64,000 nt of DNA, taken from a virus. The stretch lies in IMG/VR virus record IMGVR_UViG_3300025057_000003, positions 1 to 64,000 of that record. One strand, written 5' to 3'. Each line of letters opens with the position of its first letter. The stretch's first letter is position 1. Made by a program: the position numbers and the translations under genes. The notes beneath the pieces were generated by a model. It was not told the DNA's origin and did no database searches. It saw only the letters and a program-made list of their open reading frames with translations. Shown here in pieces: positions 26,494 to 51,765 of the stretch.

Positions 26494-27687
26494 ATGACGG
26501 ATCTAGAAAAACAAGTACTAGAGTCATTCAAATGGAAAAAGGATAACTCTTACTGCGCTAAAAGAATTGGGATTACTGTTAGCAAGTATAGTAAAATTAA
26601 AAAACAATTAAAAACAGCAACTAATCCAAAGTATAATTCTAAAGTTGATTTAGATAATGGAAGCGCTACATACTCTATAGATTGTGCGGTAGAACCTAAA
26701 AATTCAGAAGAAATAATAAAACTTCTAAAGATTGATACTAAGAAGTGGAGATTATCTAATTACTGGAATAAACAAATGTATAATGGCTGGAGAATTTCAG
26801 CTTTAGTAACACAGATAAAAGAATCAAATCAACAAACATTAATTAAGAATCTTTTTGATAAGTGGAAACCCAAAAAATATAAACTGCCTGAATTATATAG
26901 ACCAAAAGGTTTTGAGATTGCTCCTGAGAGACAAGATGTGTGTGGTATAATGTCACTTCAAGATATACACTTTGGTAAAGAAGGTAATGAAACTATAGAT
27001 AAAGACTTTGAAGATGCAATTTGTTACTTACTTAATAAATCTATTGTAATGTACAACATTAAAGTTTTATACTTTGTGGTTGGTGGAGATCTAATAAATA
27101 TGGATACTTTTAGTGGAACCACTACAAGTGGAACTCCTTTAGATAATTGTATGACTGCAACAGACGCATATGTGCAAGCTTTTGATGCAATGCATTGGGC
27201 AATTAACTTATTAAAAATGTATTGTGAAGAAGTTGTTGTAGTGTATGTACCTGGTAATCATGACAGGTTATCATCTTTTCATTTAGTTCATGCTTTAGAA
27301 AAATCAATAGATGATGAAAACATCAAATGGGATACAAAGTATGAAGAGAGAAAGGTTCATGTATGGCATAATAACTTTAATGCTTTTGAGCATGGTGATG
27401 CAACCAGCAAAAATACACCTATAATTTATGCTACAGAATTTCCAATAGAATGGGGTACTGCTAAAAATAGAACTTTATTTACCGGACATTTTCATCAAAA
27501 TAGGACAGTAGAGTATATAACTACAACTGAAACAGCAGGCTTTATACATAAGACATTACCAAGTTTATCTAAGACGGATTATTATCACTATCATAAAAAG
27601 TATACAGGAAATAGAAGATCTGGTAAATTAGAACTTCAGCTACCTGATAAAGGAAATATTTGTGAGCTTACTTATTTAGCTGATTAA
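26494..27687 (+). CDS. Calcineurin-like metallophosphoesterase with N-terminal HTH-like region
   Basis: All five MPP motifs are present: DIHFG, GGDL, PGNHD, EHGD and GHFH. Confidence 0.88.
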   Translation: MTDLEKQVLESFKWKKDNSYCAKRIGITVSKYSKIKKQLKTATNPKYNSKVDLDNGSATYSIDCAVEPKNSEEIIKLLKIDTKKWRLSNYWNKQMYNGWRISALVTQIKESNQQTLIKNLFDKWKPKKYKLPELYRPKGFEIAPERQDVCGIMSLQDIHFGKEGNETIDKDFEDAICYLLNKSIVMYNIKVLYFVVGGDLINMDTFSGTTTSGTPLDNCMTATDAYVQAFDAMHWAINLLKMYCEEVVVVYVPGNHDRLSSFHLVHALEKSIDDENIKWDTKYEERKVHVWHNNFNAFEHGDATSKNTPIIYATEFPIEWGTAKNRTLFTGHFHQNRTVEYITTTETAGFIHKTLPSLSKTDYYHYHKKYTGNRRSGKLELQLPDKGNICELTYLAD

Positions 27688-28989: not shown

Positions 28990-29241
28990 ATGGATGCAAT
29001 TTATAATAGCATGGGAGTAAGAGTCCCAGGAATGTTTAAGAAAGGAGGATCTGCACCTAAAGGATATCATTTTATGCCAGATGGTACATTAATGAAAGAT
29101 TCTGATCATAAAAAGAAAGGTGGTAGTACTACTAAAAAAGACTCTTGTTACTATAAAGCAAAAGCTGCTCATAAAGTATTTCCTTCTGCTTATGCGAGTG
29201 GTATGATTGCAAAGTGTAGAAAAAAGAAAGCTGGAAAATAA
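28990..29241 (+). CDS. Small basic protein (GVRVPGM tag + GYHFMPDG module + CYYK..PSAYASG..KCRK module)
   Basis: 83 aa, Lys-rich, modules separated by KKGG. Confidence 0.8.
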   Translation: MDAIYNSMGVRVPGMFKKGGSAPKGYHFMPDGTLMKDSDHKKKGGSTTKKDSCYYKAKAAHKVFPSAYASGMIAKCRKKKAGK

Positions 29242-29540
29242 TGGCAGTTAGAAAAACAGCAAAGGGTGCAGCTCTTAAACGATGGTTTGAGGAGAAATGG
29301 ACAGACCAGCATGGTAGAGAATGCGGTAGTCCTAAAACTAAGGGTATTAAGAAATGCAGACCTAGCAGAAAGGTTTCTAGCGAGACTCCTAAAACTTGGA
29401 GTCAAGTTGATAAAAATAAAGAAGTTGCTAAAAAGAGAAAAGTAGGAATGGGAAATAGAACTTCAAAAGCAAAGCATGGCGGAGAAGCCTGCTTTACAAA
29501 TACGGGAGTTAGAATTCCAGGAATGATTAAAAAGAAATAA
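29241..29540 (+). CDS. Small basic protein (LKRWFEEKW module + C-terminal GVRIPGM tag)
   Basis: 99 aa, Lys/Arg-rich, TAATG-coupled. Confidence 0.8.
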   Translation: MAVRKTAKGAALKRWFEEKWTDQHGRECGSPKTKGIKKCRPSRKVSSETPKTWSQVDKNKEVAKKRKVGMGNRTSKAKHGGEACFTNTGVRIPGMIKKK

Positions 29541-29541
29541 T

Positions 29542-29847
29542 ATGGAGCCAGTATATAATTCAATGGGTGTTAGAGTTCCCGGCATGTACAAGAAAGGAGG
29601 TTCTACTCCTGCTTGGCAACGTAAGGAAGGTAAAAATCCCAAAGGAGGATTGAATGCAAAGGGTAGAGCTAGCTACAATAAAGAGACTGGTGGTAATCTT
29701 AAAGCCCCTAGCAAAGAAGTTGGCAATAAAAGACGTGCTTCGTTTTGTGCTAGAATGAAAGGTATGAAAAAGAAACTAACATCAAGTAAAACAGCTAATG
29801 ATCCTAATTCAAGAATTAATAAATCATTAAGAGCTTGGAACTGTTAA
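29542..29847 (+). CDS. Small basic protein (GVRVPGM tag + GGLNAKGRASY...RRASFCARM...SLRAWNC module)
   Basis: 101 aa. The C-terminal module resembles a small family widespread in aquatic phages (recalled, not searched). Confidence 0.8.
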   Translation: MEPVYNSMGVRVPGMYKKGGSTPAWQRKEGKNPKGGLNAKGRASYNKETGGNLKAPSKEVGNKRRASFCARMKGMKKKLTSSKTANDPNSRINKSLRAWNC

Positions 29848-29858
29848 AATTTTAAGTA

Positions 29859-30764
29859 ATGAGTATATCACATAAATATAGAACCTTTGATTCATTGTAT
29901 GAAGATGTATCTGTTGACTTTGCAAACTATGCTCTGGAAAATATGATTGATCCAGCTCAGCTAATCAAAGTTGCTACAAGAGTAAACTATGATCTGGGCT
30001 TAAGAATACATAGAACTAAAGAAGTGGTTCTTGATATAGAACACGGTAAAGCCAAACTGCCATCTGATTTTGCATATTTAAATTATGCATTTAAATGTGG
30101 TGAATATACTATTGCAGATAGGCCACCATCAGGAACCCATATAGAAACATTTAATGATGTACCATATGTCCCAGCTCCAGGTGAGTCTGGACCATGTGAA
30201 GATCCTGAATGTAGAGATGTATGTGTAATTAAAACATGTGATGGTAAAAATGAACACCAACTTGTACAAAGAATAAATGCATCTCAATACAGAACCTTTA
30301 CAGCATTTATGCCGTTAAGGATTGATACTGTAAATGATGCAACATGTGACTGCCCTAATGTAGGAATACAAGCTCATGATATAGCTGAAATAAAAGATGG
30401 CTTTATGGTTACAAGTTTTACAACGGGTAAAGTATATATAAGCTATCAAGGTGCAATGGAAGATCATAATGGAAATCTTTTAGTATTAGATCATCCTTAT
30501 TGCAATGAATACTATGAGTATGCATTAAAGCAACGCATACTTGAAAATATGATATTTGCTGGTGAGAATGTATCTCAACAGTTAGGTCTAATTGAGCAAA
30601 GACTGAGAGCTGCTAGAAATAATGCTCTAGGATTTATTAATACTCCAGACTTTGCAGAACTTAAAAAGGTATGGTTGCTTAACAGAAAGGCTCAATACCA
30701 TAACTATTATAATATGTTTAAGAGTTACCCTCCTCATGGGAACCGTCTATATAATTTAAGTTAA
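29859..30764 (+). CDS. Tail tubular/ring protein
   Basis: TSFTTGKVYISYQG..EDHNGNLLVLDHP...EYYEYALK, immediately upstream of the tail stabilisation gene as in crAss-like phages. Confidence 0.7.
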   Translation: MSISHKYRTFDSLYEDVSVDFANYALENMIDPAQLIKVATRVNYDLGLRIHRTKEVVLDIEHGKAKLPSDFAYLNYAFKCGEYTIADRPPSGTHIETFNDVPYVPAPGESGPCEDPECRDVCVIKTCDGKNEHQLVQRINASQYRTFTAFMPLRIDTVNDATCDCPNVGIQAHDIAEIKDGFMVTSFTTGKVYISYQGAMEDHNGNLLVLDHPYCNEYYEYALKQRILENMIFAGENVSQQLGLIEQRLRAARNNALGFINTPDFAELKKVWLLNRKAQYHNYYNMFKSYPPHGNRLYNLS

Positions 30765-30765
30765 A

Positions 30766-33700
30766 ATGGCAAAGCAGCAATCAACATCTTCTACTGAGGT
30801 AAATGCTACAAGTAAAGGGATGCAAAAGGATTTGTTTCCTACCTATTCTCCTAAAGATCAATGGAGTCATGCAAGAAATGCTGCAAATAATTCTGTTGAT
30901 GGTGATGTAGGTGTTATTGGAAATGAGCCTGCTAATTTACTTTGTGCTATAATACCTTATACAGTTATAGGTACTATTCACACTTATGGAGATCAATGGG
31001 TTATATATTCAACAGATGATATAGATTCAGAGATAGGTATTTTTGATGATAATAAATGTGAATATACCACGCTTGTAAATGATAGATGTTTAAGTTTTAA
31101 TAGAAAGTATTTAATAACCGGTGCAGCTAAAGAAAACTATGATTGTACTTGGCAGGTATATTGGGATGATGGAAATAATCCATCTAGAACTTTAAATATA
31201 GATGATATTCCTTATATACAGGAGGTTGTTTCTGCTCCTGGTGCAGAGTGCGTATTGTATGAGGATACAACAGCTTTAGATTGTGAGAAGATAAGATTAG
31301 CTCCTTTATTGGATACGCCATGTGTAAAACTTAGCAAAAACGTAGATGGTGGTCAACTTAGAAATGGAAGTTATCAAGCATATGTAGCATATGTTGTAAA
31401 TACACAACGTGTAACAGATTATATTGGTGTTTCAAATATTCAGCCATTATTTCAACATTTAACAAATGCAGGATCATTAGATATTCAAGTAACTAATTTA
31501 GATAAAGATTTTGAGGAATATGAGCTTGTAATTCTAGCTGATAATCAAGGTCAAAAAGTTGCAACAAGAATTGGCACATATAGTACAGAACAATCTGCAA
31601 TATCAATAGATCTTATTAGTAATTCAGAAGCAACAGATGTATCACTTAGAGATCTACTTCTAAGAAGACCTGCTTATGAGAAGTCTGATTCAATGTATGT
31701 AGTTAATGACTATTTGATTAGACAAGGACCAACAGAACAATTTGATTTTAACTATCAACCAATAGCAAATAATATTCAAACAAATTGGGTTGTAGCAGAG
31801 TATGATGCAGAATATTATTATAAAGGTGGAAATAAAGCTCAGTTTATGAGAGATGAGGTTTATTCCTTTTTTATACGTTGGGTTTATAATACAGGAGAAA
31901 GATCATTATCATATCATATACCAGGAAGAGCTCCTGGATTTAATTCATCAAATCAATTTGGTCAGCCGTTGGCTGATGAAGGTCCTGCTTCGGGTATTGA
32001 TGTAATTAGTAACTCAGGTCAGGAATTTAATTTTCAAGTATATAATACTGCTTCTGTTACATCTATTAATTTAACGGAACCTACGGATGATGGCGGAACT
32101 ATTATTGCTAGAGGGGGTATGGCTTATTGGCAATCAACCGAAAGATACCCTGCCACTGATCCCGTTAGATGGGCTGATTTGTGCGGAGAACCAATAAGAC
32201 ATCATAAATTTCCCACAGAAGAAATAAGTTCAAGTTTAGAGTTATCTGCTAATTCTGGCACACGTATTAGGATACTTGGTGTAGAGTTTAGCAATATAGA
32301 AAGACCTAAGTTTAATGATGGTACATACATACCAAATATAGTAGGATATGAAATATTAAGAGGATCTAGACAAGGTAATAAGTCAATACTTGCCAAAGGT
32401 ATATTTAGAAATATGCGGGAGTATCAGATTCCTGATAATGAAGGTGTATTTGGACCAAAAATTGGATTGTATCCAAACTTTCCATACAATGATTTAAGAG
32501 CCGATGTATACCACTATGATGGTTCTGCCGGTAATATAAATTGGCCTTGGGCAGGTAATAGCTCAAGTAATTTTCTTGGAACAGATCCTGTTCCTAGGAC
32601 AGATGGATGCGATACTTGGAGTGATTCATTAAGTAACTTTCCTCCATTAACAGATTACAGAAGAGATATATTTACATTTCATTCTCCAGAGTTAATGTTT
32701 AAGCGTCCATTTTTAAATCCTTATGAGATTAGAATGTATGGGGCTTATTCAGGAGAAAGTGTTGGTAGCTTTAAAGCTAGTGAAGAGCATCCTCAAAATA
32801 AACTGTTAAGAAATGGTGCTGCTATTATAGCAGGTATAATCGGGGTAGGCTATGCTATAGGTCAAATGCAAGGTACACAACAAGTTAAAAAAGTTGATGC
32901 TACAAATTCAAATACACCTTGGTTACCAATATGGTTTCTTGCAGGTTTAGCAAATGGAACAAATGTTCCAGGAGTTAATGCTGTAGCAGCCGGAACATCA
33001 ACAGGAACTGGCGCGGGTTCAGTAGCAGCAAATATAATATTAAATGCATTATTAGATGAAGGTACCAAACTTCTTGATATCTCGCTTAGTGGTGGTTCTG
33101 GAAGTGATATTGCATTTTATGTTCAGGCAGCTATTCAACAAGGTCTTGGTCTTGTTCCAGGTATGAATGGCGGTGGTTATGAAAGAACATATATTAAAGA
33201 TAAAGATACATCTTTACTACCCGTAATAGTAAAAATTATAACAGGTGTTGTAAATTCTAGAACAAATATTGCAATAGGTGCTCAAAAGATTATAGATCTA
33301 ATGTATAATCTTATTTCAGCTGAAGACTTTGCATTTAAATATAATTCTTATGGTTTATTTGATTCATATCATAGAACACAAAGTGGTATAAGATTTAGAT
33401 CCAGAAATGTTCAAGCAAATTACATTGGAAATACATTTACAGCATTTAATACACAGTTTAAAATAAATAACTTATTTAGACCAGATACTGTAGTTATTCA
33501 AACTAATGATAATTTTCAAATACCTCAAGATCTTGGGGCACCTCAAGATAGATCTAGATATTGTGTAGGTGGAGATGCTAGTGGTAGTTATGGTGATGAT
33601 TATATAACTAATCCAAATGCTACACAAACAAAGCAAATCTCAGCATTGTATGGCGCATTAAAATTTAATTATGATAATCAGTATGGTCAGATAGAAGGTA

Positions 33701-36700: not shown

Positions 36701-37182
36701 TAGAAAGTTTCGTATATAAAGGAAATCAATTCAATGCATGCGGTGATGATAAATGGCATGATTTAGATTTCAATTTTGATGAGTCAATTATTTATAATAG
36801 TGAGCAAGTATCAGGATTATTAAGATTAGAGCTAAGTCCAAAAGAAGATCCCATCAATGCATTAACATATCCAATTATAAATGCAAATGATATTCAAATA
36901 TTATATTCAAAAGAAGAACAAAAATATAGATTCAATCAGTTCTGGGATACAACCAATGACAGAGGTGAGTTTAGTAATGCTGAACAAAATATATTAATAA
37001 CACAATGTAATGGTTATATTAGAGAATTGAATGAGTTTAATTTAAATTATAACAAGGCTGAAGATCAAAGAAAGAAATTCAGACACTACTATAACAAAGT
37101 GTTATTAAGAAGAAATTTTTCAAATAATAAAAAGATGCTTCTTACATTAGTAAATTCAAAACTTAACCTATCATTTAGATAA
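30766..37182 (+). CDS. Tail stabilisation/muzzle protein (P22 gp10-like) with inserted Cys-repeat and PA14-like domains
   Basis: 2138 aa. KGMQKD..., YWDDGNNPSRTLNI, FMRDEVYSFFIRWVY.TG..S..YHIPG and WTVSYDP....WISFHDWHP are typical of crAss-like tail stabilisation proteins. Confidence 0.8.
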   Translation: MAKQQSTSSTEVNATSKGMQKDLFPTYSPKDQWSHARNAANNSVDGDVGVIGNEPANLLCAIIPYTVIGTIHTYGDQWVIYSTDDIDSEIGIFDDNKCEYTTLVNDRCLSFNRKYLITGAAKENYDCTWQVYWDDGNNPSRTLNIDDIPYIQEVVSAPGAECVLYEDTTALDCEKIRLAPLLDTPCVKLSKNVDGGQLRNGSYQAYVAYVVNTQRVTDYIGVSNIQPLFQHLTNAGSLDIQVTNLDKDFEEYELVILADNQGQKVATRIGTYSTEQSAISIDLISNSEATDVSLRDLLLRRPAYEKSDSMYVVNDYLIRQGPTEQFDFNYQPIANNIQTNWVVAEYDAEYYYKGGNKAQFMRDEVYSFFIRWVYNTGERSLSYHIPGRAPGFNSSNQFGQPLADEGPASGIDVISNSGQEFNFQVYNTASVTSINLTEPTDDGGTIIARGGMAYWQSTERYPATDPVRWADLCGEPIRHHKFPTEEISSSLELSANSGTRIRILGVEFSNIERPKFNDGTYIPNIVGYEILRGSRQGNKSILAKGIFRNMREYQIPDNEGVFGPKIGLYPNFPYNDLRADVYHYDGSAGNINWPWAGNSSSNFLGTDPVPRTDGCDTWSDSLSNFPPLTDYRRDIFTFHSPELMFKRPFLNPYEIRMYGAYSGESVGSFKASEEHPQNKLLRNGAAIIAGIIGVGYAIGQMQGTQQVKKVDATNSNTPWLPIWFLAGLANGTNVPGVNAVAAGTSTGTGAGSVAANIILNALLDEGTKLLDISLSGGSGSDIAFYVQAAIQQGLGLVPGMNGGGYERTYIKDKDTSLLPVIVKIITGVVNSRTNIAIGAQKIIDLMYNLISAEDFAFKYNSYGLFDSYHRTQSGIRFRSRNVQANYIGNTFTAFNTQFKINNLFRPDTVVIQTNDNFQIPQDLGAPQDRSRYCVGGDASGSYGDDYITNPNATQTKQISALYGALKFNYDNQYGQIEGIKQVSMSGCLYQIDTTKPDRFRYETGPIFSGDTYVGRYTEKTIMPIFSDFLYGQPDQYPYNYLQRINIPYPRFWMDTRKYDTSELATELSTLTLSNGPGLDGALPNDLFYLDRGGKCGTSLLGLFGADKGGNSAFAMRYGYMYTHVNGILDFFVESEVLLPNRDWEDSRGKRHYDNFRYTDVDELFHAQIIKEDNNYVYDYSLSASRFVTNLIPSGVIQPRDYDPDIAETCFSYYPKRLIYSLQAQEEAKKDFWRVFLPNNYRDFKDQVNVIKPINKNGAIIFFPYQSPQMFQGIDQLQTDLNTKITLGDGGLFSQAFQNLVNSEMSNEYGSCESQRGIINTPFGFFFISQAQGKIFQQNGQGLNPISNKGMKWWFNKYLPSNLIRQFPEFEFSVLADNPVIGIGCQVIYDITDDIAYFCKKDFSLKEEYEGLVTYDSELDCFVTNGNLPLKRIEILPPPISVVVPGQGESIDQNQPVTPGSKRCIEIGDPVYFDDCSWTVSYDPKAEAWISFHDWHPELCMSSINHFLTIKSGTTDIPQCPPGFVYNADLEKCVRLIDVTEDAVVSVDELAIGVPDRCPEGFTFNELTQLCEKITTAPLTCEPTVYEVCGGTQIVGNYGKFGARFYEPVDPNPANLPIQRAGSTNIEYQNGTPLTLVAQVNSTNNPTGFINIWRERLNTAGVWGNDGAGGPCPSRTSLSGRDPVNEWIGFTTCIQIPETKVYSVFIAADNRTRFSLNGQLIVDFGLSGPVENFQYGWVFPLLLPAGTSILQLEGYNDSSVAAFAAEVYDATALELAAFTTIGELDAVKVFSTEDLIGSGAVFDIGEAGLSGCNCPEGFILSNCGGELQCVQIETAEPSEGCNCPEDYTLVYFNKDEQNFTLPDGDCFNEELPPPLCRKVECLCPPGPDPDAIVTQSGQCDDVYQSGPSGNRLYINPNPRKCIYKLQEEAEPNFKVGGIWRHNYRCDLFANYYNVDYPWEVELIESTGQNVMTLRSIEYQLESFVYKGNQFNACGDDKWHDLDFNFDESIIYNSEQVSGLLRLELSPKEDPINALTYPIINANDIQILYSKEEQKYRFNQFWDTTNDRGEFSNAEQNILITQCNGYIRELNEFNLNYNKAEDQRKKFRHYYNKVLLRRNFSNNKKMLLTLVNSKLNLSFR

Positions 37183-40100
37183 TGAAAAAGTCATATTCAA
37201 ACATAGAGCGTAGAGGTTTACCGGGTGGACCCAATGAAGAAATAAATTTTAGCAACTTAAGTTATTCAACTCAAGGCTATAAAAGATTTAGTCCAGATGT
37301 AAACAATCCATTTAATCTTATTAATTCAGGAAGAATTACAATGAAAGATGTGGACTTTCCTGTTACGGGTATTGATAATCTTGGATATAGAATGACAATG
37401 ATGCCAGATGAAGAATATGAATTTCCAGGTAATGAAGTATTAGAAATACCTCACAGAACTCTAGAGAGCTTGCAACCGCATCATAAAGATCATCATAATA
37501 ATATACATGCTTTTGCTGGTATAACAGGAGATGCTGTTAACCATATGGGAGTATATGGAGGATTTGATACAAAGCATTTTGGTTTACATGGCTCTTATTT
37601 AAAACCTTTACAACAAATAGCACATAACTCAGGTGATATGCATTTAAGTGCAGAGTATAGAGGTGGTAATAATAGATTAAACTTTAATGTAGGCCCTACA
37701 TTTAATATGCATGGTGGCCATCCTAGCTTTGGAGTACAAGGTGGTTTAAGATTTAACTTTCAACCAGGTGGTGAGATAGAAGAAGATATGATGTATTCTC
37801 AACCTATTGAAGATATTATTAGTGATAGGAAGAATGATAGCTATGAGTACAAAAGATCTCAAGATCCTAGAACAGGGGCAATGAGTTATTATCAAAGAAA
37901 GAAAGGTTCTAACACTTGGAGAGATGCGGGCAAAGAGGGAAGTACAGGATACAGAGCTGTAACTAATGTATTTGGGGATGACAAGACCGGCTATGCAAAC
38001 TCACCAGAGAGAGCTCAGTTTCTAGATAAAATGAAGATGAACTATAGAATGAAGGACCAAAATTATATTAGAGGTCTTTTAGATAAAGCAAATCATCCTT
38101 TAGATTTAGTTTATGGTAATCCACAATTAGGCATACCTGCTTTTGGAGAACAGATTAAAAATATGTCTGAGTATAGAGAAGATTTTTTTGATCCATATGG
38201 AGATCAAGAAGATAAATATTTTGCAGAGTATGCGGCAACTCCACAAGAAAGAAAAGCTGCTGCACAACGGGCAAGACAAAATTATTTAAGTAATGTAGGT
38301 AGAACTGAAGAGGAAGATCAAATATATGAAGCAAAAAGACAAAAAGAAATTGATGAAGAGCATGCTAAATGGAGAGCAGAAAGAGAAAAAGATAGATTAG
38401 AAATGGGTCATGATGGCTTTGGTGGAAATGTAGTTGGTGGATGGGAATACACAGGTCAAACTCCAGATGAATATTATGCAGATATGCAAGACTCTGGACT
38501 TGGGGAGATAATGGATTATACAGGTATGACCACAGCAATGAATGTACTTGGTGTAACTGATATTATGAAATTAGGTATGGATGTTGAAGAAAAAGGTATA
38601 GGTGCTTTAACTGATGGAGGTAATTTGTTGACTGTAGCAGGTTTAATTCCTGGTATTGGTATGCTTGGTAAAGGTGCAAATCTTGTGGGAAAAGGTAGTA
38701 AACTTATTAAAACAGGAAAGAACGTAACAAAAGCTATAGATACAGGAAGAGATGTATATAATAAAGCATTAAAGCCAATTAATAAAACTTTAAATAAAAT
38801 TGGAGATGCTAAAAGCAGCAGTAAAATTTTAAATAAATACGGTGTTGGAAGCTTGAGTGATTTTAATAAAAATGTTCTAAAGAAAAATATAATATCATCA
38901 TCTAATCCAGCAATGCAAAAAAATATAGATAATGTTTTTAATACTACTAAAAAGCTTGGATTATCAAATGACTTATGGGGTGCAGCTACTGGATATGGAA
39001 TGTATAATTCATTAGATGCTGTAGATAGAATAGTGCATGGTGAAGGTAGTACAGATGATTTTGTCAAAGCAGGATTAAATTTTATACCAGGTGCAAATAT
39101 TGCTAAATCAACAGGTTTAGCTACGTATGGAACAAAGGCTGGTTTAAAGGCTATAGATAAATCAGGAGTATTTGATGATGAAAAAAATGAACGTCAAATA
39201 TCTCAACAAAACAACCAATTAAGAACAACAATGTTTCAAGGCGGTGGTGAAAGCGGAAGACGTAACTTAAATGATCTTTATGTTTCACCTTCAGATTTAG
39301 CTTATTTAAATAGACCATCTACAAAGAATGATCCTAATGAATATTATTGTAACCCGGGTGATGTAGGTTGTTTAGCAAGCTCTTATGATGCATATGATAA
39401 ACTTGTTGGACAAAGATATAGAAGTGATGAATTTTTATCGGAGCAAGGTTTAAAAAAATCTCTAGGCTTGCAAAGTTTACCAAGCCGATGGGATTCTCGT
39501 TCCGGAACAGGATATGACTGGGACCCAGAAACAAATGATTTTGTTTATTATAAAAATGACCAGGAAACAAAAAGATATAAGCCTGGATCTACCACACATG
39601 ATTGGATCATGAAGTATAAAGATTATTTCCAAAAAGGATATGAGGGAGAAGAGCAAGGTGGAGGATATGACTTTACAGCTGATAGCTGGGATATACATGG
39701 GATTCTTGTAGATCAAGGTGGAAAGAATGTATTTACTGGCGGTACTGAGTGGGATAACTATAACAAAACGGGTAACATAATGACTCCTGAGAAATTAAAA
39801 AACCTTTATTCAGAAATGACTCCCGGAACAATAATAGGTTTTAATAATTATAATAAAGGACTCAATCCTAAAAAAGGATTAACAGGTTCTGGTCATAGTA
39901 CCCAAGTTGTTGGTTATGATGAAAGAGGTGTTCCTGTAATATATGATTATGGTGATTATCTTCCAATTGATAAACTTGGTTTAGAACAGGGAGGTTTATA
40001 TAGTATAGATCAAATAAGTAATATCACTATACCAAAAGAACATATAGGAAAAAATTTAGAATGGGCAAAAGAAAAAGGTTATTGGACAGGCGAAGATCCT

Positions 40101-41300
40101 AAAGATTTAAATCTTAATTTAGAACCTATACTATCAAGATGGGGTCAAGATGATGATGAGCTTCCTGATTTTTATGCAGGTTTAAAAGATGAAAAGTTTA
40201 ATTTGATGGATGATCTTAACCTTAAAGAAAGTCAATATGATCAAATGGCCGCTGCACTTATAGGCATTGCAATGGAAGAAACAGAAGGTGGAGGTGGTTT
40301 CCAACATAATATAGAACAACTTTTACCTGGTACGGCAGGTCAAGATACTTCTGGTTTAACTCAATTAATGTGGTCTAATATTGCAGACGATGAAAAATTA
40401 AAGAAGATTGCTGAAAAGTATGGAATTACTAAACAATCAGATTTAAAAGATTCTAAAAAGTCTGCTATTGCTTCTATGATATATGGATCAAGAAACTATT
40501 TAGCCGCACAAAAGAATTTAAAGGCGGGAAAAAAAGAAGGTATTAGAACATATTATCCTCCAGGTTGGAAAGGCACACTTAAAAGATTAAAAGGAGATAA
40601 CCAAGTATATGATGGAAAAACATTTATAACAGAAGGTGGAAAACAAATAGATTTATTTACTGGAAATAATTGGTCGGGTATTGGCTGGACAAAAGACTTA
40701 GAGGATATTCAAGAACAACTTGATGCTGCATCTGAAGCTGAAGGAATACCCGGTAGATACACAGCACGTAAAACTACAGATGATGATGGAGATGAAGTAA
40801 TTGTTATAGATAAAAAGACTTTAGGTAATGCAGATATGGATCCTATAGATGCATTTATTTATAATTGGAATTCACCTTATGCCTTAACATCTGGGGATGC
40901 TCAGGGTGGATCTGGTTATGTTAAAAATGTTAAGAGTTGGATGGATCAGATAAAAATGCAAGCTGGTGGTGAAATTACTCCAGAGCATGTTCAACAAAAA
41001 CAAAAAACGTTGGAAGAAGAGTTAGCTAAAATGGAACAATATAATTTGAATCCTGCTCAGAAGATGCAACTTACAGAATCACTTATTGATGCATATAATG
41101 ATACGGTTCCTTATAAATTTAAAATGGGTGGCCCAACTCTTCAACCAGAATTCCAAATGTATAAAGATTATATAGTGGGTAAAGATGAGAGTGAGGATGC
41201 TAGAAGAAACTATGATAAACTTAATAGAGTTTACTATAGAGAAGCCAAAATCAAAAACATGAAACCGGCTAACTATATAATGAGTGAGCTGATATCTTAA
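37182..41300 (+). CDS. Modular virion cargo protein: beta-strand module, TG-like hydrophobic module, papain-like module and lytic transglycosylase-like module
   Basis: N-terminal ITMKDVDFPV.G..N.G..MMP..EY.FPG..V.E.P. Cys/His pair CLASSY...GHSTQVVG. SLT-like IAMEETEGG...SGLTQL...YNWN...YVKNV. Confidence 0.7.
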   Translation: MKKSYSNIERRGLPGGPNEEINFSNLSYSTQGYKRFSPDVNNPFNLINSGRITMKDVDFPVTGIDNLGYRMTMMPDEEYEFPGNEVLEIPHRTLESLQPHHKDHHNNIHAFAGITGDAVNHMGVYGGFDTKHFGLHGSYLKPLQQIAHNSGDMHLSAEYRGGNNRLNFNVGPTFNMHGGHPSFGVQGGLRFNFQPGGEIEEDMMYSQPIEDIISDRKNDSYEYKRSQDPRTGAMSYYQRKKGSNTWRDAGKEGSTGYRAVTNVFGDDKTGYANSPERAQFLDKMKMNYRMKDQNYIRGLLDKANHPLDLVYGNPQLGIPAFGEQIKNMSEYREDFFDPYGDQEDKYFAEYAATPQERKAAAQRARQNYLSNVGRTEEEDQIYEAKRQKEIDEEHAKWRAEREKDRLEMGHDGFGGNVVGGWEYTGQTPDEYYADMQDSGLGEIMDYTGMTTAMNVLGVTDIMKLGMDVEEKGIGALTDGGNLLTVAGLIPGIGMLGKGANLVGKGSKLIKTGKNVTKAIDTGRDVYNKALKPINKTLNKIGDAKSSSKILNKYGVGSLSDFNKNVLKKNIISSSNPAMQKNIDNVFNTTKKLGLSNDLWGAATGYGMYNSLDAVDRIVHGEGSTDDFVKAGLNFIPGANIAKSTGLATYGTKAGLKAIDKSGVFDDEKNERQISQQNNQLRTTMFQGGGESGRRNLNDLYVSPSDLAYLNRPSTKNDPNEYYCNPGDVGCLASSYDAYDKLVGQRYRSDEFLSEQGLKKSLGLQSLPSRWDSRSGTGYDWDPETNDFVYYKNDQETKRYKPGSTTHDWIMKYKDYFQKGYEGEEQGGGYDFTADSWDIHGILVDQGGKNVFTGGTEWDNYNKTGNIMTPEKLKNLYSEMTPGTIIGFNNYNKGLNPKKGLTGSGHSTQVVGYDERGVPVIYDYGDYLPIDKLGLEQGGLYSIDQISNITIPKEHIGKNLEWAKEKGYWTGEDPKDLNLNLEPILSRWGQDDDELPDFYAGLKDEKFNLMDDLNLKESQYDQMAAALIGIAMEETEGGGGFQHNIEQLLPGTAGQDTSGLTQLMWSNIADDEKLKKIAEKYGITKQSDLKDSKKSAIASMIYGSRNYLAAQKNLKAGKKEGIRTYYPPGWKGTLKRLKGDNQVYDGKTFITEGGKQIDLFTGNNWSGIGWTKDLEDIQEQLDAASEAEGIPGRYTARKTTDDDGDEVIVIDKKTLGNADMDPIDAFIYNWNSPYALTSGDAQGGSGYVKNVKSWMDQIKMQAGGEITPEHVQQKQKTLEEELAKMEQYNLNPAQKMQLTESLIDAYNDTVPYKFKMGGPTLQPEFQMYKDYIVGKDESEDARRNYDKLNRVYYREAKIKNMKPANYIMSELIS

Positions 41301-41363
41301 ATTATAAATTAGTAAATGTTAGTAATTATTTGTATATTATAATTGTATGTAATAATATAAAAA

Positions 41364-44300
41364 ATGGGTTATAGAGATTTAAACAATAGAGGTTTGCATG
41401 CAATGAGGATGCAGCAATTTATGCAAGGAGGTGGTCAACCACAAATGGCGCCACCACAAATGGAAGCAAAGCAATCCCCTATAGATGAACTAATACCTGC
41501 TATAAAGTCAGCTCTAGAACAAGGTGCTGCTTTACCAGACGTTATTGTTAGTTTAGCGCAAAATCAAGTTCCAATTGAAGCTATCCAACAAGCTTTAATG
41601 GCAGCAGGTATAGCTCAAGAAGAAATTCAGCAAGCTTTTCAAATGCTGCAACAACAGCAGGCTGAACTTGAAAGTCAATCTCAACAAACAGAAGGACCTG
41701 TTGAACCTTCTGCTCAACCACAAGGAGGGGCACCTGCTCCAGAAATGGCGCCTGAGCAAGCTCAAATGCCAATGGCACAAGGAGGTGCTGAAATTGGATT
41801 TGCTCAACAAGGTCAAAATAATGTAGGACCTTCTATTAACTCAGATATCCCAGAATACCAAGAACCTATTGAAGAAGTCATCAGTGAAAGACTTGATGAA
41901 GAAGGTAAGGTAATAAAGGATAATTGGGAATACAAAAAAACTACAGATCCTAACACAGGTCAGATTTTTTATGAACGAAGAAAAAAGGGAAGTAAAAACT
42001 GGATTGATGCAGGAGAAGAAGGTAGTAATTCATATAGAGCTATTACAGATATTTTTGGTGATGACAAGACAAATTGGAAAAGTTCTCCAGAAAGAGCGGA
42101 TCATGTAGCAGGTCTAAAGCAAGGCTATAGGGATATGATGGCAGCACAAAAAGCTAAAGAGTTAGAGGCTGCAGCTCAAGAGCAAGGTATAGACTTTTCA
42201 AAATATGGTGTTAAGGTAATAAATTATCCATATGAATATAAAGGTATGCCTCCTGGACACATTGAAGCCGTATTCTATGATAAAGAAACAGGTGAACCAA
42301 TGAATGAAGTTGGTGGGATATCAACTAGAATTAATAGATGGGGTTCAGGTTATGGTGGCGATGGTCCAAGAATAACAGGAGATGAAGGTTATACTCAAGC
42401 ACTGGTAGATTTTGATGCTTTAAACATGCCAGGTGTTAGAAGTGCAGACTTAGATTTGACTCCAGAACAAATGATGCAATTTATCGCTGAGGCTAATAAG
42501 TTCAAAGGTACATCTTATAAGAATTTAAATGAAAAACAAAAGAATTTCTTAAAGATGATTAACCCTGATATTAGCCAAATACCTATGGCTTTTGGTACGG
42601 GTAGTGATGATAATTATGATTTCTTAACTTCCAATTGTGCAGATGGTGTTTGTAGAGGATTAGGTTTAGATAGAGATCAGTTTACATCTGCAGGAATAAC
42701 TAATCCAGAAAAAGTTATGGATTACATTTTACAAGGTAATAATATAAGCAATGTACAAGGAAAAAAAGGACCAAGTAAAGAAGAGTTTTTAAAAAATGTA
42801 ATTGATCAATCTGGAATTAATAAGTATACAATTGGCGGCTTATCTGATAAAAATATAAACATGTTGTCTGATTTTGTAGATAATATATCTAGAGAAGAGG
42901 CACAAAATCTAGCAACATATGCACCAATAGCTGCTCACTATGGTAACAAAACAAAAGAGGTTCTTAATAGAGGTATTGACTTAGATCAGTCCTTCGGAGA
43001 TATGCTTACAAATACTGGTAACTATTGGCGTGATTTAATTAAGAATAGTGCTGCAACTGGAATTGCAGGATATATGGCTCTTCCAGATGGTACTATACCA
43101 ACTGCGTTAGATGCTGGAGCAAGGGAATATATTTATGAGCCCATAAAAGATGCAACTGGTGGTTTAATTGATTTAGATCAATCTGCGGGTGACATGTTTG
43201 ACAACACAGTAAAATATTGGAAAAGAGAAGGAATTGGCGGTCTTTGGCCTTTTGAACAGGGGGGACAACCAAATAAATATTCAAGTATAATAAATGGTAA
43301 TAAAATGAAATATTCAAATCTATTTAAAAATGGAGGTGGTTATAATAACCCAGGCTTTAGATCATTACCTCAATATGTTCAAAACAAAATAAAAAGGAAT
43401 GCTCAGGAGGGAACTGAAATAGCAGAAGCTATACCTTTAGATATATCTGCAGAACAACAAGCATATATGGATGCTAAAGCTGCATATGATGCTGAGATGG
43501 CTAGAGTGCAGGGTGTTAGAAATAAGACTGCAGAGTTAGCTAGAAAATATGGTGATGCTAATGCATCTTACTCAGATGTAGGTATATCAGATAGATTAGC
43601 AAATTGGATTAATGATACAGGTTTTGCTTGTAATACATATTCTTGTCAGATTATGAGAGAAGCTGGAGCAACAATTCCACAAGGAACCGAACCATTTGAA
43701 ATGAATGGTAGAACATATCGTCCTGGAGATAAGCTTCCTATTATACCAGGTAATGCTCAATTTAACTCTTACGCTGATAAGTTAGGATTTGAACTTATGC
43801 CCAAAGGTACATTGCCAACAGAAGCTGGAGATCTTGTTAGAGGGCATATGTATAATGCAGGTCCGGGTGCAAGTAGCGGTTCATTTCATAGTGTGCTTTC
43901 TGCAGGGTATGGTGATGATGAAATTTTAGATCTATATAATAACCCAGGAGGTGTGTATTCAGGATATCAAAAATCTGGATTTGAAGGTAGTGATCCTGAC
44001 TTTTATACAAATGATTCTGGTGTAATGAGATATGTTGGAGACTCAATAAGATTAAAAGAAGCAATGGATAAAGCTAAGCAAGCATATGATGCAACCATGC
44101 CTCTTGATCAATCAGTAGTTGATTCAAATCCAAACTCTATAGCAAACCTTACTAGGCAATATGGAGGTGAAGGTATGGCAGAAATTCAGCAAGGTCCTCA
44201 ACGTACACCTAGCACGGAAGAATTAATGGCTATAATACAAAAACAACAGATGCAAATGCAACAAATGCAAATGCAGATGCAACAAATGATGCAGGCGCAA

Positions 44301-44453
44301 CAAGCGGAAAAAGAAGTTGGGCAAGCAGAAATGGCAATGCAACCTACTTATAGAACGCAGAGTGCTCAAAAGCAATCTGGAGGAACAGTAGAACTTGATA
44401 CTGAAACAATAGCAAAGATAATGGCTGCCGGTGGTAGCGTTAAATTTAAATAA
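41364..44453 (+). CDS. Modular virion cargo protein with permuted papain-like and NlpC/P60/CHAP-like modules
   Basis: GHIEAV...YDFLTSNCADGV (His before Cys, permuted). ACNTYSCQIMREAG...GDLV...HSVL. Q/M-rich linkers. Confidence 0.7.
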   Translation: MGYRDLNNRGLHAMRMQQFMQGGGQPQMAPPQMEAKQSPIDELIPAIKSALEQGAALPDVIVSLAQNQVPIEAIQQALMAAGIAQEEIQQAFQMLQQQQAELESQSQQTEGPVEPSAQPQGGAPAPEMAPEQAQMPMAQGGAEIGFAQQGQNNVGPSINSDIPEYQEPIEEVISERLDEEGKVIKDNWEYKKTTDPNTGQIFYERRKKGSKNWIDAGEEGSNSYRAITDIFGDDKTNWKSSPERADHVAGLKQGYRDMMAAQKAKELEAAAQEQGIDFSKYGVKVINYPYEYKGMPPGHIEAVFYDKETGEPMNEVGGISTRINRWGSGYGGDGPRITGDEGYTQALVDFDALNMPGVRSADLDLTPEQMMQFIAEANKFKGTSYKNLNEKQKNFLKMINPDISQIPMAFGTGSDDNYDFLTSNCADGVCRGLGLDRDQFTSAGITNPEKVMDYILQGNNISNVQGKKGPSKEEFLKNVIDQSGINKYTIGGLSDKNINMLSDFVDNISREEAQNLATYAPIAAHYGNKTKEVLNRGIDLDQSFGDMLTNTGNYWRDLIKNSAATGIAGYMALPDGTIPTALDAGAREYIYEPIKDATGGLIDLDQSAGDMFDNTVKYWKREGIGGLWPFEQGGQPNKYSSIINGNKMKYSNLFKNGGGYNNPGFRSLPQYVQNKIKRNAQEGTEIAEAIPLDISAEQQAYMDAKAAYDAEMARVQGVRNKTAELARKYGDANASYSDVGISDRLANWINDTGFACNTYSCQIMREAGATIPQGTEPFEMNGRTYRPGDKLPIIPGNAQFNSYADKLGFELMPKGTLPTEAGDLVRGHMYNAGPGASSGSFHSVLSAGYGDDEILDLYNNPGGVYSGYQKSGFEGSDPDFYTNDSGVMRYVGDSIRLKEAMDKAKQAYDATMPLDQSVVDSNPNSIANLTRQYGGEGMAEIQQGPQRTPSTEELMAIIQKQQMQMQQMQMQMQQMMQAQQAEKEVGQAEMAMQPTYRTQSAQKQSGGTVELDTETIAKIMAAGGSVKFK

Positions 44454-44454
44454 T

Positions 44455-47400
44455 ATGCCTAAAGTTAAAAACAGTAAACATAGGGTTGAGGTAACTTTAC
44501 CTGATGGATTTCAATTAGTAGATGGCAAACTAGTTAAAAAAGGACATGGTGGTCATGTTACCGGTGATCAATATGAGTATGGGTTAACTACATTTAATCC
44601 ACATGCTGGTGAATCTATGGGCCCAAAAGATACAGATGTAAAGTATAGCTTATCATCTGTACCTAGAGATATAGCTAATATAGAAGCTGAAGGTGGTGAA
44701 ACTGTTTTAACTGATTTAAATAATGATGGTCAGTTTGGTCTTTATGATATAGTTGGCCCTAGACATTCTAGCGGTGGTGTACCAATGTTACTACCAGAAC
44801 AATCATTTATTTTTTCTGATACCCAGGCAATGAAAATGGGTAAAGGTATGTTAGCAGAACATGGAATTCAGTCTAGAAAGAAGATGACTCCTGCTAAAGT
44901 ATCTAAACAATATAACTTAAATAAATATTACGGTATTCTAAATGATGAGTATGCAGATAAGATACAAGCTAATACAGCAGATCTTATGTTGCAGAAAAAC
45001 AAAGAAGGTTTATCTAAGTTAGCTTTTCAATCAGAGATGATGAAAGGATTTGAGGAAGGCGTACCTTTAGCCGCATATCCTTATATACAATCTATAGGTA
45101 TGGACCCATTTGAGTTTGCTCAAAAAATGGAAGGCATGCAGCAAGGTTCTGGTGATCAGCAAGCTCAACCAATGAATGAAGCAGATGCTCAAGCAATGAG
45201 TGCAATGGCTGCCTATGGTAGAGAATTAAATCAAGCTCAGTTTGGCTATGGTAACATTGGCGGAATGGGTTTTGATAATTATAGAAATTTCAATCAAGTA
45301 TTTGGTGAAGATATGGTACGTCCTAATATAAGGAGTGCTTATATGCCAATGAATCTTAATATGAAAGGGAATGCTATTGGTGCATTTAACAATCTTGTAG
45401 AAGGCGCTGGTAGATTATTTAGTAAGCAAGATGAAGATGGAGATGGTTTAGCTGATGGTGCTTTTAGAGATTTAAAAGCTAAAACTAATAGATATAGAGA
45501 TACTCATAAATTCTTAAAAGGTAAGACTACAGAGGGAATGGAGAATATGGGTGATAAAACTATGCTAAAGTATAATCCTGAAACAATGGGATATGATGTC
45601 CAGTATAATGATCCTAGATATCAATCTAATGTAAAAACGGGAGATATCTTTACAGAGAAAAGCAAGCGTAAACTAATGCATGCACCTGATCTAGAAGGCT
45701 ACAAGTCATTTAATGAAATGCAAAAAGAAATGTCAGGTTTATCTGATGATCAAAAAGACCAAATGAGATATATGGGTGAAAGCCTAACTGATTTTCAAAA
45801 CGAAAAGGTAAATATGCCAAAAGGGATGCAGTTTGGAATGGATGCTAGCGGAGGTATTGGATACTATGATGCGGGAGCAACTTTACCTGAAGGAAGTCAA
45901 GAGCGTATTAACGAAATGATGATGACAGGTAGTTATAATAAAAGACTTGGTGGAGGATTAAGAAAAGCTCAATTTGGAAACTTTGATTTTACACAATTAC
46001 CACCAGAGCTTGCAAAATATTTTCCTAATCAATCACAACAAGATTTTGGCCCTATGGGTCCTACACCGTATCAGCAAAAAATGATGAATCAAGCTGAGCA
46101 AATTAAGAATGATCCTGCAAGTTTTTTCCAAAACTTTAACCCGCAAACATTTGGTCAAACTGATGACTATGCTAATGTACAAAGTTTAGGTCCAGATCTT
46201 AAACTACAACAAGATGTTAAAAATAGAAATGAAGTAACTCCAGAAGATCCAGATCCACGAAATGCAGGAGAAAAATTAGCAGGAGGTATAAATAGAATGA
46301 TGAATAGCCCTCTTATGAATGCATTTGGTGAAGGTTCTGTTTTTGCAACTAAAGGTGCTGACTTTATAAATGAGATGGCAAAAAATAGAAAAAGAAAAAG
46401 AGCTGAGAATGATCTGCAGAGGATGACTATGGCAGATAATCAGTTTGGTATATCAGAGCCGGGTATATTATCTCAAGGTACTTATGATGAGAATACTGGT
46501 GATGTATTTTCAATTATGCAAGGTGTTTCTCCATTTGGAGGAAATGCTTCTTACTATGGTAAGCATGGTTTTGAAATACCTATGTTGCAAGATGGAGGAG
46601 AACCATCTTGGAAAGTAGGTGATGAGCTAACTGGAGGTACTGATGCTTGGACTGATTGGTATATGTCAGATGAGAATAAAGACGGAAGAAAGAAAAGATA
46701 TGAAACTTACGTATTCTTAAAAGAAGCTCAGGCAAAAAAGCAAGGAAAGACGTTTGATAAAAGCAAGCTTCCTACAGAAGAAGAATTTCATGATACTTAT
46801 GTAAGAGCTCAGAAACAAATCAATGCTATACAAAACTTTGATTTTGGTGATCCAGATTATTTAAAAAGAACAGATTGGGATTCTTCATGGGAGTTTGATC
46901 CTAAGTATAAGAATGCTAAACAAGCTTTAAAAGCTGGAGCAGCAACAAAAAGAGGTCAAAACTTTAGATATAAAGATGCAATTAAACAAATCAATGATAA
47001 GATTAAACAAGATGCTAAGGTAAACAATCCCGATATCACTGATGAAGAATTAAATAAACTTTTATTTAAAGAGTTAGATGACGCAGGAATTAGAATATTC
47101 CAAACAGGATATCAAGCTGGTCAAATAATGAATGTAGCAGATAATGATGAGTTTCTAAAGTTTATTCAGTCTGGTATTGATGATGACACATTTACATGGA
47201 ATGGTGTAACTTATACTATATCTCCTGAAGATGCAGCATTTGGTAATACAACTGTAGGTCAAAGAGAACAAACTACTGTACCTATATATCCTTGTAAACC
47301 TTGTCCTGATGGACCAGATAAAGGAAAAGTTCCTGAAAGAGATGAGGATGGTAATTGCCCTTGTGGTGATTGTCCTACATGTCCAGAAGGTAAAGTTCCC

Positions 47401-48342
47401 GGACTGCCAACTGAATCTGAACCATGTCCTTGTCAAGACGCACGAAAAATTGAAGAGCCTGATGATCCAGAAATGGCGGCTCCTCCTGAAATGACACCAT
47501 GGATTCAAGATCTAATTAAGACAGAAGCTATTGCAAATAGAGAAAGAGATATGTTCTTTCCATGGGAACCTGCAGTTAGAAGATCTAACTTAGAAGTAAT
47601 GTTAGAAGATCCTAACAGAGCAATTAATGCAGCTAATGCTCAATATGCAGCTTCTGCCCAAGCTCTTGGTGCTTTTGGAGGTAAGAATCAATTAGCAGCA
47701 AATTTATCTGGAATGGCTGGACAAGCTGCAGATAATGTTGCAAATATAATTGCTGGTGTAAATGCAAGAAATGTTGCAAGTGTTAACCGAGCTAATGAGG
47801 TTAATCAAAACATAGAAATGCAACTTAATCAATTAGAGGATGCAAGTAAAGTTAGACAGTATGATAATACTCAAAAAGTTCTACAAACATATATGGATGA
47901 AAAGAACTTTGATAGAGAACAATACGCAGATGCTATAGCTAATACAATTACAAATATGGCTAACACATATAATGTAAATCAAATGTATGACTACTTTAAT
48001 ATTGATCCACTAAGAGGAGGTGTTGTAGGTCAAGTAGGTGCTAAAGCATTCCAACCTACTCCAGAACAAGATGAGTGGGCATTTATGGATGATTGGATGG
48101 AAGCAACTAAAAGAGCTAAAACAATGGGTCTTGTAAATAAAGAGGGGAATGTTGATCCTGCAGTTATACAAGGAATACTTCAATCAAAAAGTGGTCAGCG
48201 TAACTATGCAGATCCAAGAGAAGAAGCATGGAGACAGCAGTATAGAAACTATATGGCCGGAGCTCAGACAAGAAAAACAGGTGGTCAACCTGAGATGAAG
48301 AAATGGGCTAGTCCATTTTATACAGGGAAGATGGGAGTATAA
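44455..48342 (+). CDS. Virion cargo/ejection protein
   Basis: ANIEAEGGETV...GPRHSSGGV...FIFSD domain of the kind seen in Bacteroidetes phage virion proteins, plus helical A/N/Q-rich C-terminus. Start moved to ATG 44455. Confidence 0.7.
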   Translation: MPKVKNSKHRVEVTLPDGFQLVDGKLVKKGHGGHVTGDQYEYGLTTFNPHAGESMGPKDTDVKYSLSSVPRDIANIEAEGGETVLTDLNNDGQFGLYDIVGPRHSSGGVPMLLPEQSFIFSDTQAMKMGKGMLAEHGIQSRKKMTPAKVSKQYNLNKYYGILNDEYADKIQANTADLMLQKNKEGLSKLAFQSEMMKGFEEGVPLAAYPYIQSIGMDPFEFAQKMEGMQQGSGDQQAQPMNEADAQAMSAMAAYGRELNQAQFGYGNIGGMGFDNYRNFNQVFGEDMVRPNIRSAYMPMNLNMKGNAIGAFNNLVEGAGRLFSKQDEDGDGLADGAFRDLKAKTNRYRDTHKFLKGKTTEGMENMGDKTMLKYNPETMGYDVQYNDPRYQSNVKTGDIFTEKSKRKLMHAPDLEGYKSFNEMQKEMSGLSDDQKDQMRYMGESLTDFQNEKVNMPKGMQFGMDASGGIGYYDAGATLPEGSQERINEMMMTGSYNKRLGGGLRKAQFGNFDFTQLPPELAKYFPNQSQQDFGPMGPTPYQQKMMNQAEQIKNDPASFFQNFNPQTFGQTDDYANVQSLGPDLKLQQDVKNRNEVTPEDPDPRNAGEKLAGGINRMMNSPLMNAFGEGSVFATKGADFINEMAKNRKRKRAENDLQRMTMADNQFGISEPGILSQGTYDENTGDVFSIMQGVSPFGGNASYYGKHGFEIPMLQDGGEPSWKVGDELTGGTDAWTDWYMSDENKDGRKKRYETYVFLKEAQAKKQGKTFDKSKLPTEEEFHDTYVRAQKQINAIQNFDFGDPDYLKRTDWDSSWEFDPKYKNAKQALKAGAATKRGQNFRYKDAIKQINDKIKQDAKVNNPDITDEELNKLLFKELDDAGIRIFQTGYQAGQIMNVADNDEFLKFIQSGIDDDTFTWNGVTYTISPEDAAFGNTTVGQREQTTVPIYPCKPCPDGPDKGKVPERDEDGNCPCGDCPTCPEGKVPGLPTESEPCPCQDARKIEEPDDPEMAAPPEMTPWIQDLIKTEAIANRERDMFFPWEPAVRRSNLEVMLEDPNRAINAANAQYAASAQALGAFGGKNQLAANLSGMAGQAADNVANIIAGVNARNVASVNRANEVNQNIEMQLNQLEDASKVRQYDNTQKVLQTYMDEKNFDREQYADAIANTITNMANTYNVNQMYDYFNIDPLRGGVVGQVGAKAFQPTPEQDEWAFMDDWMEATKRAKTMGLVNKEGNVDPAVIQGILQSKSGQRNYADPREEAWRQQYRNYMAGAQTRKTGGQPEMKKWASPFYTGKMGV

Positions 48343-51761: not shown

Positions 51762-51765
51762 ACAT

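Follow-up and report, generated by a model that had tools for sequence, protein, structure and literature searches.

A recurring Gly-Gly peptide tag flanks exchangeable modules in the predicted cargo proteins of a divergent marine crAss-like phage

What is the role of a short Gly-Gly motif that recurs at module junctions in neighbouring virion proteins of a phage? The question is raised by the first 64 kb (hereafter the window) of the 115,584-bp IMG/VR record IMGVR_UViG_3300025057_000003, in which an earlier note had described a motif of the form [hydrophobic/K]-[Q/K/A/E]-x-G-G in six genes: three small basic protein genes just before the gene for a crAss ring protein, and the genes that follow the one for the crAss muzzle protein, whose products are predicted here to be virion cargo. 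We find that this motif, which we call the tag, is a genuine short linear peptide under selection at the peptide level. Its copies lie in disordered linkers and at the extreme protein ends, in the products of the two or three genes directly behind the muzzle gene and in several small basic proteins. The tag flanks exchangeable modules, comprising peptidoglycan-binding or -cutting domains and small basic mini-domains, and it is at the tag that evolution adds, drops, permutes and moves modules between cargo genes. As to what the tag does, we favour, with a probability of about 45%, an uncut recognition, docking or hinge element rather than a protease site.

Using the strict pattern [FMLIVWYK][QKAE]xGG, the six genes (3,987 aa) contain 16 copies, compared with 4.2 ± 2.0 in shuffles made protein by protein and hence matched in composition and in Gly content; 0/2000 shuffles reach the observed number. 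All motif positions quoted in the earlier note are correct, including those in the small proteins, and the enrichment that it claimed stands, while its figure of about 20 copies has to be lowered to about 16 solid ones: five in the protein encoded from position 37182 (the 37182 protein; others are named likewise), six in the 41364 protein, four in the small proteins and only one in the 44431 protein, which beside this single strict copy has degenerate variants. The other 32 open reading frames (ORFs) of the window, with about four times as much sequence (15,961 aa), hold 5 copies. The note had seen no similar density in terminase or portal, and indeed no enrichment was found in these, nor in the capsid, the muzzle, the 48402 protein or the giant ORF at the end of the window. 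Beyond the window, a 175-aa protein (genome positions 76820-77347) carries three tags, and a 61-aa basic protein (78094-78279) is also tagged.

As the pattern had been chosen post hoc, it was retested on sequences that played no part in its discovery, namely three sets of homologues with 241 proteins in all. Homologues of the 41364 protein (n=33) have 3-10 copies each where about one is expected, and those of the 37182 protein (n=120) have 367 against 113 expected. A further 88 cluster representatives at 50% identity, retrieved with the N-terminal 97 residues only and scored with their first 100 residues left out, contain 193 copies against 54.7 expected. The subsets of the 37182-type family that were tested (208 proteins) are each enriched 3.3-3.5-fold.

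The preferences extend to positions that the pattern leaves free, and the consensus is roughly (L/V)-P-x-[M/F/Y]-[Q/K]-x-G-G-[E/S]-hydrophobic. When all GG sites are considered without bias, Gln shows a 5-fold excess at position -2 relative to the first Gly; the residue before it, three positions ahead of the first Gly (P5 in protease notation, with Q/K at P4), is hydrophobic, and Pro is enriched 2.8-fold at position -5 of the tag. The Gly-Gly is followed by Glu (38%, 5.7-fold) or Ser and then by L/V/T/I, with Pro directly after it in some copies. In alignments of the homologues the tag glycines are invariant within otherwise variable linkers. Their codons vary freely, which places the signal in the peptide and not in DNA or RNA; GGAGG codon pairs occur at 9/29 tag copies and at 53/141 other GG pairs, and with no such excess an internal Shine-Dalgarno-like signal was rejected.

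AlphaFold models of modest confidence were made of the 41364 protein and of residues 173-1372 of the 37182 protein (mean pLDDT 57 and 63). All six tags of the former fall in segments with pLDDT<50; two tags of the latter do so as well, and another two are found at domain edges, within or next to short loops of low confidence, so that across both models 10/11 copies occupy linkers, loops or termini. The exception, LEQGG at residue 937 of the 37182 protein, falls within a confidently modelled domain and is not conserved; it looks like a chance match. Homologues with recognisable Pfam domains have a tag 3-13 aa upstream of LysM or DUF5872. In the second cargo family, to which the 41364 protein belongs, a predicted helix precedes the C-terminal tag (AAGGSVK), and the last ~20 residues hold 5/7 of the invariant alignment columns, on both sides of the Gly-Gly.

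Among 153 family members, a tag is found within 15 aa of 23.5% of the internal BLAST alignment ends, where random sites give 8.1 ± 1.0%, whereas for GG pairs outside tags the corresponding values are 21.4% and 17.1%; the counted ends are not independent events, and the effect is large. Individual rearrangements agree with the earlier proposal of module swapping bounded by the motif. In one relative (P0023) the order is permuted, with the N-terminal Gln-rich module of the window's protein at residues 797-927 and the module that follows it at 47-539. A 265-residue cassette of the 44431 protein is found in at least nine relatives inside a 41364-type protein, between tags or directly beside them, and in most of these exactly between two tags (Table 1). 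Relatives of the 28990 protein on viral contigs (L017-L020), located by a degenerate DNA pattern for the leader, have exchanged the mini-module between the tags for an unrelated one and kept both leader and tags. Orthologues of the 175-aa protein have gained or lost spacers between conserved tags, and in another relative (P0061) DUF5872 is fused to a C1-type protein, that is, one of the first-cargo class. The combined evidence of predicted linkers, domain edges and alignment ends upholds the claim that the motif delimits modules.

The modules themselves point to the cell wall. Cargo homologues carry LysM, SLT, YkuD and PG_binding_1 domains, and the 37182 protein has papain/CHAP-like and SLT-like modules. 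For the window's papain-like modules Foldseek gives weak rows only, to type VI secretion system (T6SS) peptidoglycan amidases (4bi4, 4hz9, 6v98) and to lytic transglycosylases (5o8x, 7qvd, 1d0k); on these matches the papain-like modules look like peptidoglycan hydrolases. A separate protein with PG_binding_1 and Amidase_2 domains (4859-5794) is a candidate for a conventional endolysin, distinct from the peptidoglycan-cutting modules of the cargo.

The small basic proteins indicate that the tag can be an autonomous signal. The 83-aa and 101-aa proteins begin with nearly the same 21-residue leader, ending in PGM[FY]KKGG-S, and over codons 5-21 (17 codons) the leaders of the 28990 and 29542 proteins differ by seven synonymous changes and one conservative change, a pattern that speaks for purifying selection on a leader carried by stand-alone proteins. 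Behind the leader of the 29542 protein stands a DUF6321 module (29542-29847), which shares up to 92.5% protein identity with small Pelagibacter podophage proteins. Matches to the module occur in 543 GenBank phage records, most of them T4-like cyanophages, in which it forms the end of a modular protein whose gene lies between the terminase genes gp16 and gp17. As the pelagiphage and cyanophage homologues lack the tag-bearing leader, the tag is an addition that this lineage makes to modules acquired from elsewhere, a fact for which a plain linker would give no reason. The 175-aa and 61-aa basic proteins are little more than tags and spacers, and orthologues of the 175-aa protein have kept its tags. 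These three observations, on the retained leaders, the leaderless homologues and the tag-and-spacer proteins, argue that the tag is autonomous and not a mere linker.

DUF6321 is a very widely exchanged small basic module, and our literature searches found nothing on it; the same cyanophage proteins also contain the Cys-rich mini-module that stands at the C-terminus of the 28990 protein. In cyanomyovirus loci (L009-L012) the same mini-modules are joined by IEEG, HAEG-AAW and VSEE-AW instead of xGG. As a lead only, these junctions might be T4-type prohead protease sites in place of the Gly-Gly tag.

Table 1 Features of the tagged genes and of the exchanged cassette. Positions are those of the window unless residues are given.
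Feature	Position	Strand	Basis or remark
Tag-bearing N-terminal leader of small basic protein 28990-29241, ending PGMFKKGG-S	28990..29052	+	sequence, relatives L017-L020
Second tag of the same protein, KKKGG	29110-29124	+	sequence
C-terminal end of DUF5872 small protein (29241-29540): AKHGG tag, then leader-like GVRIPGMIKKK	29469..29537	+	kept in relative L018
N-terminal leader ending PGMYKKGG-S, ahead of DUF6321 module (29542-29847)	29542..29604	+	sequence
Predicted first cargo protein (C1 position, 1372 aa), first after muzzle gene	37182..41300	+	position, homologues, model
Tags of the 37182 protein	FQPGG 37758, MFQGGG 39231, KMQAGG 40953, FKMGG 41118
Module common to first two cargo proteins, spanning the FQPGG and MAQGG tags	37689..38048	+	C1 aa 170-289 vs C2 aa 113-256, 40% identity, E 3e-24
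Predicted second cargo protein (1029 aa)	41364..44453	+	homologues, model
Tags of the 41364 protein	FMQGGG 41418, MAQGG 41772, FEQGG 43251, FKNGGG 43323, KQSGG 44370
Near-invariant C-terminus of the 41364 protein, IMAAGGSVKFK	44421-44450
Cassette, aa 262-527 of the 44431-48342 protein	45214..46011	+	inside 41364-type protein in relatives
LQDGG, sole strict tag of the 44431-48342 protein	46585..46599	+	sequence
RKTGG, degenerate copy near the C-terminus of the 44431-48342 protein	48271-48285	+	sequence
Same cassette in relative P0010	residues 582-840		tags 576, 825
Same cassette in relative P0009	residues 555-810		tags 545, 795
Same cassette in relative P0023	residues 515-788		tags 515, 783

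The genome setting suggests what these proteins are. Upstream of the cargo genes lie those for a Crassvirus major capsid protein (15436-17055; Pfam Crass_capsid, 2.2e-29), a crAss ring protein (29859-30764; CrAss_Ring_1, 4.7e-08) and a crAss muzzle protein (30766-37182; crAss_MUZ, 1.9e-27), as in the Crassvirales virion module, and on this gene content the source is a divergent marine crAss-like phage. A nucleotide search of GenBank phages returned no relative, and a search of viral contigs for loci with the 41364 protein gave no match; protein relatives are numerous in marine metagenomes, on contigs of ~100-155 kb. Within the virion structural block lies a gene for an SbcD/Mre11-like DNA-repair exonuclease (26494-27687; PHROG 704, E 4.6e-43). 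In PhicrAss001, the cargo proteins C1 and C2 and the virion RNA polymerase subunits are encoded after the muzzle gene (PMC10172136). The cargo genes of the window are followed by a single open frame of 5,244 aa, from 51727 to 64000 and on to genome position 67461, which is presumably a fused virion RNA polymerase polyprotein.

The closest comparison is with gp45 and gp46 (C1/C2) of PhicrAss001 (Bayfield et al. 2023, PMC10172136; PDB 7QOG, 7QOI, 7QOJ, 7QOL, 8CKB; Pfam PF25725 crAss_CARG1), which like the window's cargo genes come directly after the muzzle gene. Packed in the virion and ejected from it, these proteins are for the most part disordered, and short modules of theirs dock on the portal, ring and muzzle proteins (PMC10172136). 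The 37182 protein may belong to the functional class C1: it is encoded first after the muzzle and has long low-confidence regions in the AlphaFold model, and a weak homologue, gp041 of Cellulophaga phage phi17:2, is annotated as a virion structural protein and has six tags against 0.7 expected. PF25725 matches nothing at E<=1 in the whole 115.6-kb genome, so there is no membership of that family at the level of sequence; PDB sequence searches with both large cargo proteins likewise gave no match. A BLAST comparison of gp45 with the 44431 protein was not significant, and a look-alike stretch in gp45, phi17:2 gp041 and the 44431 protein is therefore not claimed. The marine proteins differ from those of PhicrAss001 in carrying peptidoglycan-hydrolase or -binding payload modules and in the tag variant, [MFY]-[QK]-x-GG-E/S.

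The 37182 protein also opens with a conserved 90-aa domain (37182-37472; GLPGGPNE, GYKR.SPDVNNP), the GLPGG of which lies at 37215-37229. The domain belongs to a very large and always N-terminal family, with 1,424 cluster representatives (50% identity) at E<=0.001 and 574 at E<=1e-10, for which there is no Pfam or PHROG model. It is probably a tail-proximal anchor.

Gp45 itself has tag-like sites: a basic N-terminal leader ending in IFDTGG, the sequence YPS-[LM]-x-A-[FY]-GG twice, and a basic C-terminal tail after KAKGG. Two of its pieces, 214-245 and 425-552, are bracketed by FSAYGG at 209, AFGG at 427 and YPSMFAYGG at 562, and these pieces are resolved segments in the PhicrAss001 structures (PMC10172136). 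Neither the tag nor proteolysis, cleavage or a protease is mentioned in the text of the crAss001 papers, and our literature searches found no published description of the tag or of proteolysis of crassvirus cargo; the tag is apparently undescribed.

We tentatively propose that the tag works as an autonomous element recognised by a single common partner. It would act as an uncut handle for docking or cargo loading: during assembly, multivalent weak contacts would tether the modules to one another or to a component of the virion interior, and the Gly-Gly could double as a hinge between independently folding modules. Docking is favoured because of the conserved C-terminal helix and tag, because the docked pieces of gp45 are bracketed by tag-like sites, and because no suitable protease was found in the ORFs scanned. 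Analogous to such a handle would be the cargo-loading peptides of encapsulins and the CsoS2-type repeats, short hydrophobic sequences containing Gly or Ser that tether cargo inside a protein shell (of the HK97 fold in encapsulins). They too are terminal or repeated in disordered linkers; the likeness is one of position and conservation and implies no homology of sequence. After docking, the tag could also be removed by proteolysis, as the T4 capsid-targeting sequence is. The tag belongs among the peptide codes on virion-internal proteins.

Several points weigh against this proposal. The tags mark every junction and both ends, as morphogenetic protease sites do in T4 and phiKZ, and one targeting signal per protein would suffice; furthermore, Gly-Gly is typical of P2-P1 in the sites of viral and bacterial cysteine proteases. 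In PhicrAss001 gp45, tag enrichment is not significant (p about 0.07-0.13). Finally, the tags lie mostly outside the resolved segments described for the PhicrAss001 maps (PMC10172136), and this speaks against a docking that is ordered and symmetric once the particle is mature.

The most serious rival, to which we give somewhat less credence, is that a protease specific for Gly-Gly, from the phage or its host, cuts the tags while the head matures or once the cargo has been ejected, removing the N-terminal leaders and short C-terminal tails and splitting the cargo polyproteins into modules. The layout would suit such processing, with tags that end N-terminal leaders of 12-34 aa, mark the junctions and recur 3-18 aa before the C-terminus, all in accessible disordered linkers; the cyanomyovirus junctions described above, in phages with a T4-type prohead protease, lend it a lead. 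Parallels exist in T4 gp21, phiKZ gp175 and the adenovirus protease. For the T4 capsid-targeting sequence and gp21 sites, and for the inner-body processing by phiKZ gp175, a dedicated prohead protease gene is known. In these phages, too, a short conserved peptide code marks the N-terminal leader and internal junctions of proteins that are packed in the head and injected, although Glu is the last residue of their codes ((L/I)-x-E, or S/A/G-x-E), where that of the window has Gly-Gly. Gly-Gly sites are cut by cysteine proteases such as the adenovirus protease ((M/L/I)XGG-X), coronavirus PLpro and deubiquitinases (LXGG) and the C39 peptidases of double-glycine leaders, and these sites likewise have a hydrophobic residue before the Gly-Gly and occur in leaders and polyprotein junctions. 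Cleavage would also account for the presence of gp45 pieces in tail barrel and capsid alike, with no need for twelve chains to pass through the portal (our inference from PMC10172136). The published virion proteomics of crAss001 do not establish an intact gp45, since mass spectrometry was performed on one excised band and the 2018 gel lists band sizes only.

Weighed against this, the Pfam and PHROGs scans revealed no prohead-type, adenain-like, Ulp-like or C39-like protease; they covered the head and tail block and the larger remaining ORFs. The register is also unlike that of LXGG/MXGG sites, as the window tag has its hydrophobic residue at P5 and not P4, with Q/K at P4; neither a hydrophobic P4 nor a protease domain of clan CE or CA was found. 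At the C-terminal tag, conservation is as strong beyond the Gly-Gly as ahead of it, and some copies of the tag have Pro immediately following. In addition, the published model of gp45 starts at A425-F-G-G428 and runs on into the portal-bound domain (PMC10172136).

Neither of the candidate proteases put forward in the earlier note fares well. The papain-like modules were rejected because their weak matches are to peptidoglycan amidase effectors and lytic transglycosylases. The giant ORF has a single HExxH, HEAFH at residue 2218 (~nt 58378), preceded by LKQGG and MKSGG; the part within the window has no Pfam match, the 5,244-aa frame is not enriched in tags, and a zincin there was likewise discarded as the processing enzyme. 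The only peptidase with Pfam support in the ORFs scanned is a DUF2201 metallopeptidase-vWA protein in the replication block, next to a MoxR-like ATPase. This pair, a MoxR-like AAA+ ATPase and a metallopeptidase with the sequence HELLH, is encoded outside the window on the minus strand (genome 93206-95641; L015:9206-11641), and nothing ties it to the tag. The cleavage mechanism suggested in the note is thus not supported, and its alternative of a docking signal would fit the data at least as well. The fuller version, in which the tag is a Gly-Gly processing code for an unrecognised phage or host protease and the cargo proteins are polyproteins cut into separately stored pieces, strikes us as less likely than not.

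An improbable alternative is that the Gly-Gly and its hydrophobic neighbour form only a flexible joint, or a leftover of gene fusion, that nothing reads. All conserved copies do lie in linkers, and fusion and fission of modules are frequent, as with the DUF5872 fusion. A passive linker would nevertheless hardly account for the specific residues conserved on both sides of the Gly-Gly, for glycines that stay invariant while the linkers around them vary, for tags kept at extreme termini where a hinge is unneeded, for purifying selection on the leader of stand-alone small proteins, or for the absence of the tag from other linker-rich virion proteins of the same phage. Cross-linking of the transglutaminase type through Q/K, or covalent anchoring to peptidoglycan via a C-terminal Lys, is an idea only. 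An artefact of composition or of a motif defined after the fact is very improbable and was rejected: the six proteins are Gly-rich (9-12%), with GG pairs somewhat over-represented (59 against 42.7 expected), the pattern is loose and one copy sits inside a folded domain, but the Gly-matched shuffles, the three independent homologue sets, the bias at free positions and the alignment ends, which associate with tags and barely with other GG pairs, are all contrary to it.

Crassviruses rank with the most abundant phages in both gut and ocean, and the protein cargo that they load and later eject amounts to about 5 MDa. Were the processing-code reading true, the published view of gp45 in PhicrAss001, a single chain running from tail barrel to capsid, would need revision, and the Bacteroidota phages that are most abundant in gut and sea would possess a new system of morphogenetic proteolysis. 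Docking and cleavage can be tested directly against each other, since the cultured Cellulophaga phages phi17:2 and phi4:1, as well as PhicrAss001, carry the tag. A conserved cargo tag offers a concrete, mutable handle on how cargo is loaded and ejected; it predicts which proteins are cargo, explains the cassette exchange of payload modules (lytic transglycosylase, amidase, LysM, L,D-transpeptidase and small basic domains), and could serve to load foreign proteins into phage particles.

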